From: a virus
DNA: 64,000 bases
IMG/VR virus record: IMGVR_UViG_3300047476_000792
Span: 26,403 to 90,402 of that record
Strand: one strand, 5' to 3'
Part shown: positions 2,066 to 5,869 of the stretch, piece after piece
How the letters are laid out: every line of letters begins with the position of its first letter
Position numbering within the stretch: the stretch's first letter is position 1
Notes under the pieces: model-generated
Databases searched by the model: none
The model's input: only the letters and a program-made list of their open reading frames with translations
Told to the model about the DNA's origin: nothing
Made by a program: the position numbers and the translations under genes

Positions 2066-2860
2066 ATGATTAAATCGTTTCAATTCTTATCTGGATTCGC
2101 TACTGGATTCCCTCATCTTAAAGATCGCAAGTTTCAGTTTAATGATAATCTGAATATTTTATTTGGAAATGTCGGTAGTTGTAAATCGACTATATTGAAA
2201 ACTATGGCTGCATATTGCGGTATCCAAGTAGGAGGATGGAGTACGATCTCCGATCCTCCAAAACTTGCATACGATAAGCCTGAACACTTCCCATTATGTT
2301 ATAGGAATTATTCCCCTGGACAGTGTGATGCCCGCGTTGAGTGGGATGGAACCCCGTCATTTTATAATGATTCAGAGGCAATGGGTAAGAACGATAATAC
2401 ATGGTTTTTTAGCAATGCTAGCCAGTCAGCAGATGGAATCACATCAGAAGCAGAACAGATGGATATTCTTGCATCTAAACCATCATCAGGACAATATAGA
2501 ATTCATAAGATAAACAAGATTATGAAGGTGATTCAATATCCTCCTAATCTTGAAGTGATTCCTCCTAATATTCTTGATCCAAGGATGCGCGAATTGGCAA
2601 AGCTGGAAGTGGCTTATATTCAATCTCTTCCTAGAGATGGAAAAATAACATTGTTATTGGACGAACCAGAAAAGGCATTATCTATTCCTAAACAGATAGA
2701 ATTGTTCGACGTTTTGGTTAAGTTATCGGAACATTTTCAACTTATAGTTGCCACCCACAGTCCTTTTATATTAGAATATAAAAAGGTTAATATCCTAGAT
2801 GTCAGCCCTGGTTATGTAAAGGACTGCCGAAACTTGATAAAAGGACTTTCTAAAAAGTAA
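2066..2860 (+). CDS. ABC/AAA_21-type ATPase
   Basis: Walker A GNVGSCKS, signature-like SSGQ, Walker B LLLDEPE, H-loop ATHSP. Confidence 0.8.
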   Translation: MIKSFQFLSGFATGFPHLKDRKFQFNDNLNILFGNVGSCKSTILKTMAAYCGIQVGGWSTISDPPKLAYDKPEHFPLCYRNYSPGQCDARVEWDGTPSFYNDSEAMGKNDNTWFFSNASQSADGITSEAEQMDILASKPSSGQYRIHKINKIMKVIQYPPNLEVIPPNILDPRMRELAKLEVAYIQSLPRDGKITLLLDEPEKALSIPKQIELFDVLVKLSEHFQLIVATHSPFILEYKKVNILDVSPGYVKDCRNLIKGLSKK

Positions 2861-2869
2861 GTAGGTTCT

Positions 2870-3478
2870 ATGAAAATGGAAACTTTTATCGGAAACGCAA
2901 TAAGCAGAATGATTTCCGAAGGAGTATCAGTTGAGTTTACTAAAAGGAAGCGAGTAGGAAAATTCGGTTATAATTTTTTTTATGATGGAACCCATAAAGA
3001 TTATGGACCTATTCCGCTTTTCAAGATTCATTTTTATAATGACTCATTAGAGGAGAATTATGGAATATTCGTCCACGAATATTCCCATTTTTTACAATGG
3101 CAAGAAAAGATTCCTCTATGGAAAATAGCACAGAAATCCAATAAGAGATTTGATGATTGGTTACAACAAAAGACCAATGAAATAGATATAGAGGATATTC
3201 GAAATATCCAGAGGCTTGAATTAGATTGTGATAAAAGAGCTATTCAATGTATAAAAGACAACAATCTCCTTATTGATATACCGTCATATATAAAGGAATC
3301 CAATGGATACATTATGTCACATAATATAATGGTTAAATCTAGGACATTCTTCGTATCAGCATCATATAGTGATCCAGAAGTTGTACAATATATTCCTGAA
3401 GAACACTTAACTGAGGATCAATTAGACTACTGCCCTGTAGAGTTTTCGGAGGCATTTCTTAAAAAGTCTCTAGAATAA
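2870..3478 (+). CDS. putative HExxH zinc metallopeptidase
   Basis: VHEYSHFLQW followed by downstream LELDCDKRA. Confidence 0.6.
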   Translation: MKMETFIGNAISRMISEGVSVEFTKRKRVGKFGYNFFYDGTHKDYGPIPLFKIHFYNDSLEENYGIFVHEYSHFLQWQEKIPLWKIAQKSNKRFDDWLQQKTNEIDIEDIRNIQRLELDCDKRAIQCIKDNNLLIDIPSYIKESNGYIMSHNIMVKSRTFFVSASYSDPEVVQYIPEEHLTEDQLDYCPVEFSEAFLKKSLE

Positions 3479-3479
3479 G

Positions 3480-3959
3480 TTAATAAAGTTTTTTAGAAAG
3501 ATTTGAGAACATATCTCCTAAATTATTATCATGAAGAAATTCTTTAAGCTTTCTGGGATCGATAGATTCAGAATAATCGGATAATATTAATTCATCAGCA
3601 ATACATCCATCCAAGCCATCTATGGAAGATTTAGAAGGAACCTTAATATTATTTTTTATAAAAAACAATTTACCCGTGAGTTTCTTTAGCTTCTGGCATA
3701 TTTTATTAATATGCTTATCCAATTTATCCCGGTCATAATATTTTAACAATTCATGAGAATCGGATAAAACATGGGAGTGGTAGAATCGAACAGAAGAATC
3801 TTTTATACGGTTATTAAATTCGTGTATAAAAAAATACATGATTATTTTTTTAACATCAGGAGTGAATTTATTCAATAAATGGTAATCATAGAGAAGATTT
3901 ACCACATCTGTTTCTATATTAAAGAGAACTTCATCAATAGATATTAAGGTATATGTCAT
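3480..3959 (-). CDS. hypothetical protein
   Basis: 159 aa ORF in a minus-strand operon. Confidence 0.65.
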   Translation of the reverse strand: MTYTLISIDEVLFNIETDVVNLLYDYHLLNKFTPDVKKIIMYFFIHEFNNRIKDSSVRFYHSHVLSDSHELLKYYDRDKLDKHINKICQKLKKLTGKLFFIKNNIKVPSKSSIDGLDGCIADELILSDYSESIDPRKLKEFLHDNNLGDMFSNLSKKLY

Positions 3960-3970
3960 ACCCTAATATA

Positions 3971-4714
3971 CTACTCACCACAGTTGAATTCATACTTAAA
4001 AATCTCTTCTTTGTCCGCACCTAAACCTTGTAACATTCGCTCTTTCCATTTTTCGTCACGATCAGGAACTTGATTCCAAAAGAATTTTTCAACAGTATAA
4101 TTGTAATGGTATTTACCTTCTACGGAATTTTCATACAACCGTAAAATTCCGTAATCATTATCATCCATTTTAGGATTTGGACAACTTGCTATTACAATAG
4201 AGGAATTAGAAGCCTTAGAAGAAATGAGAGGCATTATTGCGCTTAAAACATCTTTATGTGATATATATGATGCATAGTCATAATCCATTAGATATATGCG
4301 ATTCAGCGAACGACCACATACTCCGCGTGTATAATATTCGAAAAATATTATCTCTGAACCATTTAAAAATGCTATTCTATTTTTAGTTTTATGGCATAAA
4401 ATTTCTTTTAAGTTTGCAATGTCTATGATTCTTTCTATATTATAATCTGATATTGCTTCTTTAGTGGACACTATACATATACTACAGCCAGAAAAATTAA
4501 GTGCATGATAAATCGCATCAATCAATATCATGGTGGTTGTTCCGACTTGTCTGCTTGCTACCAGTATATTTATTTTATTAGAATTCCAACTAGTTAGTAT
4601 CTCTTTTTGACGTGTGTATAGTTTTATAGGTGCCGATTCTTCATAAAAAGTAGAAACCCTTATATTTTCTTCTGCCCAACGAATTACATCATGATATACT
4701 ATTTCTTCTGACAT
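3971..4714 (-). CDS. terminase large subunit (gp17)-like ATPase domain only, degenerate catalytic motifs
   Basis: LYTRQKEIL (adenine-binding motif), ASRQVGTTT (cf. SRQxGKT), FLNGSEI, W..VPDRDEKW, FKYEFNC; no nuclease domain. Confidence 0.75.
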   Translation of the reverse strand: MSEEIVYHDVIRWAEENIRVSTFYEESAPIKLYTRQKEILTSWNSNKINILVASRQVGTTTMILIDAIYHALNFSGCSICIVSTKEAISDYNIERIIDIANLKEILCHKTKNRIAFLNGSEIIFFEYYTRGVCGRSLNRIYLMDYDYASYISHKDVLSAIMPLISSKASNSSIVIASCPNPKMDDNDYGILRLYENSVEGKYHYNYTVEKFFWNQVPDRDEKWKERMLQGLGADKEEIFKYEFNCGE

Positions 4715-4722
4715 ATGGGTAT

Positions 4723-5190
4723 TTATTTTATATCTTTGAAGATCTCTTGGGATATTTTCTTATATTTTTCCCGCAAATCCTTTGGACAATTACCAATACG
4801 GAAGTGGATTATACCATTAAAGAAACTATCATCGAATAAGACTCCGTGGCGCATTTGTTCCAAGGTTTCCATATACGACATCGTCCATTTAGTTTCACAA
4901 CAATGTAAAATTGTACGTTTAAATATGTCTGGACCGTATTTTTTAAGAATCTCTTTCAAATCGTTTGAACTACCATAGTATTTTTTCCAATCAGATTCTT
5001 TCATTACTCGACGACTACGAGTTTTACCTTTAAGGGGTTTTAACTTAGTATTACTCCAGAATATTTTCTTTCCTAAGTATTTTGTCGGTTTATCTTTAGG
5101 ATAATCCTCGGGAATATTTACTATCTCTATAAGATATACAAATCCTAAATAATCATCTATATTTTCTGGAATATTTTCCCATTCGTTCAT
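4723..5190 (-). CDS. GIY-YIG family endonuclease
   Basis: GFVYLI...KYLGKK, WKKYYGSS, FKRTIL, FNGII. Confidence 0.75.
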   Translation of the reverse strand: MNEWENIPENIDDYLGFVYLIEIVNIPEDYPKDKPTKYLGKKIFWSNTKLKPLKGKTRSRRVMKESDWKKYYGSSNDLKEILKKYGPDIFKRTILHCCETKWTMSYMETLEQMRHGVLFDDSFFNGIIHFRIGNCPKDLREKYKKISQEIFKDIK

Positions 5191-5199
5191 AAACTTTAT

Positions 5200-5820
5200 T
5201 TATGAACGTTTTTTGCGTTTTCTACGTCTTTTTCCTATAATATAAGGAACCCGTGCATCGGATGTATCATAGAGACCGTCATTTCCCAGAACAGATGCAA
5301 CAGATATATCTTCTTTTATGTTCTTCTTTTTCTTAGGTTTCCTCTGAGGTTTAGCTGGATTGTCGAATTCCGCACCTATTGCGGCAAATAGTTGATCATA
5401 ATTGGCATCCCGTGAAAACTTCTCAGGAACTACAGAAATGTCATATAACATTTCTAAATCCCCCAATGCATTTTTCTGTTTATCGGTTAAACTTTGTGAT
5501 GCAGTATATTTTAGTTGTGGTGTATATTGTGTCACATCTTTATTAATCTTAATCCAACCCCTATTAAGGAGATAACCAATCGCTAGAATCATTTCAGAAG
5601 AATGATCTGTCTTGTCTGATATATTCTTTTCATAGAAATCTGTAGTATAATTAACTATGCTTTTTATTATTCTTATTGCATCAGAGCCGTGCTGTTGCCA
5701 GCGAACAGGCCGAACAATGCCAGAAGGACTTACCCAAAATCCATAAGGGCATTCATCAGGAAGTTCAGCAAACGACTCTGCAAGTATTTTTCTTATGAAT
5801 CTATCGAAATTTTCTGTCAT
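5200..5820 (-). CDS. hypothetical late protein, possible internal virion protein
   Basis: Likely start MTENFDRFIRKILAE at 5820, preceded by AAGTAAATA; basic C-terminus. Confidence 0.6.
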   Translation of the reverse strand: MTENFDRFIRKILAESFAELPDECPYGFWVSPSGIVRPVRWQQHGSDAIRIIKSIVNYTTDFYEKNISDKTDHSSEMILAIGYLLNRGWIKINKDVTQYTPQLKYTASQSLTDKQKNALGDLEMLYDISVVPEKFSRDANYDQLFAAIGAEFDNPAKPQRKPKKKKNIKEDISVASVLGNDGLYDTSDARVPYIIGKRRRKRKKRS

Positions 5821-5869
5821 ACTATAATATTTACTTGAAATCATATATAACATATGATATTTTTGATAA

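Follow-up and report, generated by a model that had tools for sequence, protein, structure and literature searches.

The subject of this analysis is an open reading frame (ORF) of 247 amino acids (aa), here called TerL-N, on the minus strand of a 64,000-nucleotide stretch of viral DNA. This stretch (hereafter the window) is the right-hand 64 kb of the 90,402-bp IMG/VR contig IMGVR_UViG_3300047476_000792, which is rated 35% complete. TerL-N resembles the ATPase domain of a T4-type large terminase subunit (TerL), with the motifs for ATP hydrolysis degenerate and the nuclease domain missing. The source is a freshwater phage, T4-like and deep-branching, and even the closest cultured phages have a DNA polymerase only 32% identical to its own. 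Contig DNA is present in three freshwater-metagenome runs, a possible source. The contig carries replication, recombination and baseplate-hub genes, and no head/packaging module was found on this 35%-complete sequence. TerL-N lies in a four-gene minus-strand cassette (orf206, a GIY-YIG protein, TerL-N and orf159; Table 1). One flank of the cassette consists of plus-strand genes for a Dda-like helicase, a mini ABC ATPase and an HExxH protein, and the other of plus-strand uvsY, uvsW and gp55-like genes. TerL-N adjoins uvsY/uvsW and is located outside the head/tail module.

The link between TerL-N and the terminases has been established by several searches. With tblastn, TerL-N matched 525 phage records, all at less than 60% identity. 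The best matches are cyanophage g17 genes (E 1e-19, 27% identity), and residues 8-245 of TerL-N align with residues 36-267 of the 550-aa g17 product of S-RSM4. The single TerL-N sequence finds the T4 gp17 chains 2o0h/3cpe by phmmer at E 2.8e-6, and a profile of the five-member family described below finds them at E 1.5e-18, at chain positions 139-346. If K166 is taken as the gp17 numbering, the chains have about 25 extra N-terminal residues, and therefore the match covers about gp17 residues 114-321. PHROG 'terminase large subunit' families also match (E 3e-10 and 2e-8), and the Pfam Terminase_6N score is 17.5 bits, under the cut-off of 22. The likeness to the T4 gp17 ATPase domain (2o0h, 3cpe) takes in the whole RecA-like ATPase core, and the Q motif, S-R-Q-x-G and the C-motif region all align. 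Judged by these alignments, TerL-N is a true homolog of the T4-type TerL ATPase domain.

However, TerL-N differs from T4 gp17 in lacking the Walker A Lys, the Walker B Asp-Glu and the C-terminal RNase-H-like nuclease domain, and its gene is in a recombination module, not between the gene for the small terminase subunit (TerS) and the sheath gene. The initial annotation had described a degenerate, ATPase-domain-only TerL paralog in an otherwise intact ORF, with the Walker A Lys and the catalytic Glu of Walker B lost and a stop at FKYEFNC just before the nuclease domain. All of this has been borne out. The frame runs intact from ATG to TAG. Walker A has Thr at the Lys position (Table 1). Walker B can be aligned in two registers, one in which Asp becomes Met and Glu becomes Asp and another in which Asp is kept and Glu becomes Tyr, and an Asp-Glu pair is absent from both. 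The C-terminus, FKYEFNCGE followed by the stop codon, aligns to FAQEFEC/DFLGS of g17 at the end of the ATPase domain, so that TerL-N terminates two residues past the EFxC motif that closes this domain in canonical TerLs. Searches of the 90-kb contig showed neither a Terminase_6C nuclease domain (PF17289) nor another TerL-like ORF. Downstream of TerL-N, orf159 is an unrelated conserved gene rather than the missing nuclease half.

Table 1. Features of the TerL-N cassette and nearby genes, in window coordinates.
Feature	Coordinates	Strand	Remarks
TerL-N gene, predicted pseudo-ATPase, 247 aa	3971..4714	-	T4-type terminase ATPase domain without nuclease domain
Degenerate Walker A, SRQVGTTT, residues 54-61	4532..4555	-	T4 reads SRQLGKTT; Lys to Thr
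Degenerate Walker B, IYLMDYDY, residues 140-147	4274..4297	-	TerLs read hhhhDE
Family-invariant C-terminus FKYEFNCGE	3974..4000	-	ATPase/nuclease hinge of canonical TerL
SegE-type GIY-YIG nuclease, catalytic domain only, 155 aa	4723..5190	-	Pfam PF19835, 99.4 bits
orf206, first cassette gene, 206 aa from ATG at 5820	5200..5820	-	Poorly conserved
orf159, conserved neighbour downstream of TerL-N	3480..3959	-	Directly after GIY-YIG in relatives without TerL-N
TAAATA motif, 5 nt before TerL-N ATG	4720..4725	-	Overlaps GIY-YIG stop codon
TAAATA motif, 6 nt before GIY-YIG ATG	5197..5202	-	
TAAATA motif, 7 nt before ATG at 5820	5828..5833	-	In divergent intergenic region shared with uvsY
Mini ABC/AAA_21 ATPase gene, 264 aa	2066..2860	+	
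Gene for 202-aa protein with HEYSH (HExxH) motif	2870..3478	+	After mini ABC ATPase
Capsid-fragment mini-gene, 95 aa	9573..9860	+	Between gp55-like and gp47-like genes

The altered motifs are not peculiar to the window protein. A word-indexed search of 5.8 billion proteins returned 221 candidates and led to a family of five, made up of TerL-N and four metagenomic homologs (240-242 aa, 49-54% identity). The C-terminus FKYEFNCGE and the Walker B sequence YLMDYDY are found in 5/5, as is SRQVG-[T/L/M]-T, in which the Lys position holds Thr in the window protein and Leu or Met in the four homologs. An exhaustive profile search, which covered 1.84 billion representative proteins, gave 463 bits for the family representative and 141 bits for the next match, a 581-aa canonical TerL. 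Because of this gap, we conclude that the family has no close full-length relative. Scans of metagenome contigs with A2 and with P0155 found nothing, and neither P0072 nor P0155 yielded close copies when used to scan IMG/VR. Comparison of TerL-N with the syntenic copy on IMG/VR contig L004 gives proportions of nonsynonymous (pN) and synonymous (pS) differences of 0.315 and 0.733, the latter saturated. TerL-N evolves fastest among the eight genes compared with L004, yet it is clearly constrained. In other words, TerL-N is conserved, under purifying selection and no decaying pseudogene. The initial annotation had asked whether homologs share the loss of Lys and Glu, and they do: within the family, GKT and DE (the Walker A Gly-Lys-Thr and the Walker B Asp-Glu) are not retained, the gene is not decaying, and it does not appear to be the only TerL of the phage (see below).

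How common is this form? For the answer, 144 ATPase domains were classified, drawn from the best 150 profile hits with six added and kept if at least 185 of the 242 profile positions were filled; a domain was called short if it lay in a protein of less than 400 aa with at most 45 aa after the domain. Among the 94 long domains, 88 have both Lys and DE and 4 are without Lys. The corresponding numbers for the 50 short domains are 22 and 25. Loss of Lys is commoner in short (25/50) than in long (4/94) domains (Fisher p = 2e-10), and the 144-row tree requires no fewer than 10 changes to account for it. Several of the motif-intact short domains are contig-end or intein-interrupted pieces of ordinary TerLs. 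The window TerL-N also has the size and end point by which the short nuclease-less clade (see below) is defined here, a length of 220-295 aa and a C-terminus no more than about 12 residues from the E-F/Y hinge motif.

Phylogeny groups many of these proteins together. FastTree places the family in a 21-row all-short clade (144 rows, Shimodaira-Hasegawa (SH)-like support 95). A quick IQ-TREE run (LG+G4) on 70 chosen rows, 40 short or degenerate and 30 canonical (23 of these drawn at random), gives a 16-row all-short clade that includes the family and no canonical TerL (SH-aLRT 96), with the family itself supported at 98. Six of the 21 FastTree-clade rows fall elsewhere in the IQ-TREE run. In the 16-row clade Lys is kept in 3 and DE in 2. 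On these trees TerL-N belongs to a clade of nuclease-less TerL-N proteins that are mostly Walker-degenerate. Across 21 short proteins, little or no variation is seen in the Q motif, in the P-loop R-Q-x-G or in the C-terminal segment with W..P.RD..W and E-F/Y. P0004 is encoded on a 204-kb contig and other short paralogs on contigs of 186-368 kb. There is also a separate second clade of short, degenerate proteins (8 rows, SH-aLRT 92, or 97 in the FastTree run). It includes P0007 (612 aa), which consists of two tandem Walker-degenerate TerL-N domains (SRQTGISY/IIIEDF and SRETGLTK/IIIKDF).

Some minor observations were made along the way. Two short paralogs with GKT intact, P0013 and P0033, start with M-[L/F]-R-R-x-L-F-K and a hydrophobic stretch, and their Walker B reads Q-E. 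We take this leader to resemble a twin-arginine export leader; an exported terminase ATPase domain would be unusual. A resemblance of the N-terminal extension of P0056 to a helix-turn-helix is not backed by Pfam, which has no match there. By regular expression only, four full-length TerL-like ORFs (494 aa in L160, L161 and L223, 605 aa in L221) have a P-loop, RQAGVT or RQVGMS, without Lys.

The next clue to what TerL-N does is its neighbour. The TerL-N gene starts 8 nt after the gene for the GIY-YIG protein, in which FVY, Y-x-G, R60, E108 and N125 are invariant among 6 orthologs. We take these to be the catalytic positions by likeness to I-TevI; a solved structure related by sequence to the GIY-YIG protein was not found. 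Relatives found through UvsW have the two genes side by side as well, so that the adjacency is seen in the window contig (G000), L004, G002 and G003. In a further relative, G001, the two are one 384-aa ORF with both Pfam domains above cut-off. A search with this fusion recovered five further full-length fusions (P0166-P0170, 382-387 aa, 43-65% identity, 98-99% coverage) on contigs of up to 160 kb. All six have a P-loop of the form G-R/S-Q-S/T-G-[M/L/I/V]-S and a Walker B that reads D-N-I-D, and so are without Lys and Glu, and the putative GIY-YIG catalytic positions are invariant in 6/6. The window TerL-N is only 26-29% identical to the fused TerL-N domains. The fusion is lasting and under selection, and it joins a nuclease that appears intact to a TerL-N that is dead.

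The nuclease itself belongs to a large family, with at least 454 relatives among the 599 pattern matches listed. In the best 80 IMG/VR loci, which were used for the counts, all 80 related ORFs are domain-only (125-174 aa length bins, with examples of 137-152 aa, and 0-24 aa after the domain); 24 adjoin uvsW and 22 adjoin uvsY. T4 SegE, a GIY-YIG homing endonuclease encoded near uvsW, is the obvious comparison. The window protein matches Pfam SegE_GIY-YIG and its gene adjoins uvsY and uvsW. However, proteins of the window type are catalytic domains only, without a DNA-binding extension. The nuclease might in principle stand in for T4 endonuclease VII as a debranching enzyme in packaging, an idea that was dropped. 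PF19835 without PF02945 was found in the complete relatives G007 and G008, with T4 as a positive control, and G001, which bears the fusion, also has an Endonuclease_7-domain ORF. The 'putative endonuclease' upstream of cyanophage g17 was considered as a member of the same nuclease family and rejected, being an SNase homolog.

What if TerL-N and the nuclease together were the terminase? TerL-N would then be the sole terminase ATPase, split from its own nuclease domain and re-wired with the neighbouring GIY-YIG nuclease. A nuclease next to an ATPase-like protein does mimic the two TerL activities, fused forms exist, and no other TerL-like ORF is present on the contig. However, the P-loop Lys and the catalytic Glu are missing from TerL-N, and the contig lacks not only a TerL but the whole head/packaging module. 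Evidence also comes from collinear relatives. IMG/VR contig G006 (82 kb) shares 53 ORF pairs (26-64% identity) with the contig of the window and continues beyond its end. There, about 1.5 kb after the last shared gene, lies a canonical 581-aa TerL (P0006) with GKT and DE intact, followed by a sheath gene and a Gp23-type capsid gene. G009 has the same arrangement, with TerL about 3.3 kb past the last shared gene, and it also encodes a 254-aa short TerL-N paralog that adjoins the sheath gene and falls inside the 16-row clade. Therefore one genome can hold both a TerL and a short paralog, because G009 does, and G006 has its TerL without a TerL-N. The window contig stops 568 bp past the last gene shared with these relatives. 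The split-terminase explanation is thus scarcely credible. The synteny with G006 and G009 leads us to expect the canonical terL of this phage just off the contig end. The initial annotation had proposed looking for the true gp17 elsewhere in the genome; none was found on the 90-kb contig, and the gene can so far be placed only by prediction. Very probably, then, TerL-N can neither hydrolyse ATP nor cut DNA and is not the terminase of the phage, with the real TerL encoded a short way beyond the contig end.

G009 carries its short paralog within a minus-strand insertion next to the sheath gene, and the syntenic site of G006 is without the insertion. The insertion (L051) also encodes an 82-aa lipoprotein-like ORF at 2300-2548 (-) and a 204-aa ORF with an RRQF leader at 2563-3177 (-).

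If TerL-N is not an enzyme, what is it for? Our preferred reading, which we hold tentatively and with less than even confidence, is that it might be a non-catalytic binding, adaptor or regulatory module for the GIY-YIG nuclease or for the packaging machinery. TerL-N would act by binding, since what it keeps are the fold-defining Q motif, R-Q-x-G and the C-terminal subdomain. Its partner would be the domain-only nuclease encoded 8 nt upstream, which relatives make with TerL-N as one polypeptide. TerL-N could supply the contact of this nuclease with DNA or with the packaging machinery, for example by delivering it late in infection to TerL, to the portal or to concatemeric DNA, and the GIY-YIG domain would do the cutting.

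A number of observations weigh against this reading. None of the 80 best GIY-YIG loci has a TerL-like ORF within 4 kb, and in five loci (L064, L065, L066, L086 and L091, the last being the G006 locus) the GIY-YIG gene is followed directly by an orf159 homolog. The nuclease does not need TerL-N, because its family mostly lives without it. G006 has no TerL-N at this slot, and G009 has its TerL-N elsewhere. Moreover, the TerL-N gene is about 55 kb from the predicted position of TerL. TerL-N is an add-on in a conserved GIY-YIG/orf159 slot, and the slot holds three types of TerL-N: the window family, the fused type and the type of G002 and G003. The three are 23-29% identical, whereas other genes of the same genomes are 50-78% identical. 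The G002/G003 type has GKT/DE and a hydrophobic M-L-R-R-x-L-F-K leader (L026 1420-2193, +; L027 1-318, -), although Walker B DE can be read only in the G002 copy, as the contig with the G003 copy (L027) runs out ahead of Walker B. An adaptor model leaves the intact motifs and twin-arginine-like leader of this type unexplained, and the patchy, fast-evolving pattern would suit a gene in an arms race no less than an adaptor. The TAAATA motifs before three of the cassette genes, which we liken to the T4 late-promoter consensus, suggest weakly that these are late genes. Four baseplate-module genes have the motif in the same arrangement, but it also precedes several replication genes, and for this reason the late-gene reading is weak.

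A variable slot next to an endonuclease gene invites another explanation, in which TerL-N is a relic, a TerL fragment brought in by endonuclease-driven recombination and slowly decaying. It adjoins a SegE-family GIY-YIG gene, it is absent from G006 and the four other loci just named, and it has lost its catalytic residues. However, frames are intact and length is conserved in the 5 family members, and the altered motifs are themselves invariant. pN/pS is 0.43, with pS saturated, whereas that of a relic should be near 1. Conservation of the clade runs deep, and fusions are still found at 43% identity. The relic explanation is therefore largely refuted, and we regard it as very improbable.

Short genes of this sort also lie next to terL, or close by, in other phages. 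These were found with a profile of the 21-row short clade (A4), outside the trees. In Xanthomonas phage Xoo-sp13, Xoosp13_242 (L006 3214-3909) lies directly upstream of TerL; the A4 profile finds it at E 5e-26, with degenerate Walker motifs (YRESGTSY and FLLDVNGF). Its annotation as 'terminase small subunit' is probably wrong. In Sinorhizobium phage phiN3, gp94 lies between TerS (gp95) and TerL (gp93) and matches at E 8e-44, with GKT and DE kept. The 462-kb uncultured phage LR756500 has a dead short copy directly downstream of a split TerL, and IMG/VR loci L226 and L227 have a 216-aa copy (RQSGGS) about 1 kb upstream of TerL. The Xanthomonas jumbo phages XaC1 and XbC2 are described as lacking TerS and as having, in tandem, 'two large terminase homologs' (PMC11273794). 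No functional study of Xoosp13_242, of phiN3/phiM12 gp94 or of the XaC1/XbC2 tandem homologs was found in published work. Like TerL-N, the short genes beside terL (Xoosp13_242, gp94, XaC1/XbC2) are nuclease-less and co-exist with a full TerL, and Xoosp13_242 shares its Walker degeneracy. However, their neighbour is terL and not a GIY-YIG gene, and phiN3 gp94 is shorter, with motifs intact. In all, a short TerL-N-like protein and a canonical TerL occur in one genome in G009 (a clade member), Xoo-sp13, phiN3, LR756500 and L226/L227, and such a pair is predicted for the window phage by synteny only. The initial annotation had offered 'packaging regulator' as one possible role. This is still plausible because of the adjacency and fusion to GIY-YIG and because of the short TerL-N-like genes beside TerL.

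A parallel for the proposed adaptor can be seen in other phages, where a stand-alone HNH nuclease assists the terminase. HK97 gp74 is reportedly such an endonuclease. In Skunavirus an HNH gene adjoins the packaging genes (PMC12967558). The likeness is that of a small accessory nuclease tied to the packaging enzyme, a tie that is inferred in the case of the window. The difference is that here the nuclease has a GIY-YIG fold and would be tied through a dead TerL-like domain.

A rather different explanation is that TerL-N is an immune decoy or anti-defence protein, a TerL look-alike that titrates or blocks sensors (Avs1-3, Upx) or otherwise shields the real TerL. The background for this is a study of Avs recognition (Evans et al. 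2026, PMC13601566). EcAvs2 binds the TerL ATPase domain, with a bridging ATP held against the ATP and Mg of the terminase; SeAvs3 reads terminase active-site residues together with the bound ATP; and the TerL ATPase domain by itself activates Upx (PMC13601566). EcAvs2 is also activated by T4 vs.8, an ATPase-like protein that is a homolog of the ATPase domain of the terminase and conserves its Walker motifs (PMC13601566). The authors suggest that non-terminase activators may be anti-defence proteins (PMC13601566). A decoy would also fit a gene that is patchy and the fastest-evolving in its neighbourhood, and the phage has in addition a free gene for a capsid-protein fragment. However, TerL-N has neither the Lys nor the Asp-Glu that hold the ATP read by SeAvs3 and EcAvs2 (PMC13601566). 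Because exactly the sensed residues are lost, it should be a poor mimic for these sensors. Perhaps the loss is itself the point, as it would fit a copy selected for invisibility to Avs2/Avs3.

Comparison with vs.8 is instructive here. Both are small, terminase-ATPase-domain-like phage proteins encoded apart from terL. However, vs.8 (219 aa) stops after the C-motif region and keeps Walker A and B (GRQSGKS, IIDE), and it is an activator rather than an inhibitor. Its similarity to the short clade is marginal (hhalign probability 18%, E 1.3e-3, 117 columns). The phylogeny of vs.8 was made, according to the methods, with partial and truncated proteins removed (PMC13601566). A decoy also leaves both the nuclease fusion and the TerL adjacency in other phages unexplained, and PADLOC has no defence-model match for TerL-N. 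On balance we consider a decoy unlikely.

Could the target be other phages instead of the host? A dead TerL domain, with or without GIY-YIG, might poison the packaging motor of rivals or cut their DNA, as a weapon or a means of superinfection exclusion. The C-terminal subdomain of the TerL ATPase contacts the portal in T4, and this subdomain is retained in TerL-N. Fusion to a nuclease, the patchy distribution with xenolog-like replacement at one slot, and the export-like leaders of some clade members would also fit. However, discrimination between self and rival motors is without support, and a dominant-negative protein would endanger the phage's own TerL too. In Xoo-sp13 and phiN3 the short gene lies stably next to TerL, which points to cooperation and not to attack. 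A weapon therefore seems improbable, more so than a decoy.

The adaptor reading can be widened, at the cost of becoming quite speculative. Dead TerL paralogs could be widespread docking modules that bring accessory activities to the packaging motor or its substrate, and one reason for the repeated loss of their ATP site could be that a non-catalytic copy is free, or even selected, to shed the features that Avs2/Avs3 read. We doubt that this holds in general, but if it were true the accessory would be a GIY-YIG nuclease here and the arrangement in tandem with TerL elsewhere. It is already noted in the literature that there are stand-alone TerL-ATPase-like proteins (vs.8) and tandem TerL homologs. 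In published work, supplements aside, nothing was found on Walker-degenerate TerL paralogs or conserved loss of their catalytic residues, nor on a separate short-form clade or recurrent GIY-YIG fusion.

Why does this matter? Among the enzymes of tailed phages TerL is the most conserved, and it is also one of the main targets of pattern-recognition immunity in bacteria. Its ATPase domain has been repeatedly copied and stripped of nuclease and catalysis, yet kept. The copies are sometimes welded to an unrelated nuclease, or parked by terL and mis-annotated as TerS or a second TerL. What does a terminase domain that does not hydrolyse ATP bind? If the answer is the motor, the two-protein picture of terminase changes. 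As an immune mimic or an escape form, TerL-N would instead tell us something about the influence of Avs-type sensors on phage proteomes. A practical rule for annotation is that a short Terminase_6N match without G-K-T and D-E is not the terminase.

Several smaller points concern the surroundings of TerL-N. The orf206 product has no Pfam match and no PADLOC defence-model match. It is 42% identical to its L004 counterpart (3074-3625, +), with similar N-termini (MTE-x-FD-x-F) and a poorly conserved middle, and both proteins end in an Arg/Lys run (…GKRRRKRKKRS). Pfam, PHROG, PADLOC and Atlas gave no lead on orf159. The mini-gene near gp55 had been called Gol-like and grouped with TerL-N as a set of structural-protein decoys. 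It does encode a fragment of a capsid protein, as it passes the Pfam Gp23 cut-off (25.7 vs 24.4 bits) and over its last 34 residues shares 62% identity with the Gp23-type major capsid protein of G006 (residues 129-162); the decoy set remains speculation. In G001 the slot of this mini-gene holds the Endonuclease_7-domain ORF. Finally, the mini ABC/AAA_21 ATPase matches the PADLOC models AriA, PtuA and GajA only at the P-loop and signature ends, and it is 64-89% conserved in relatives.

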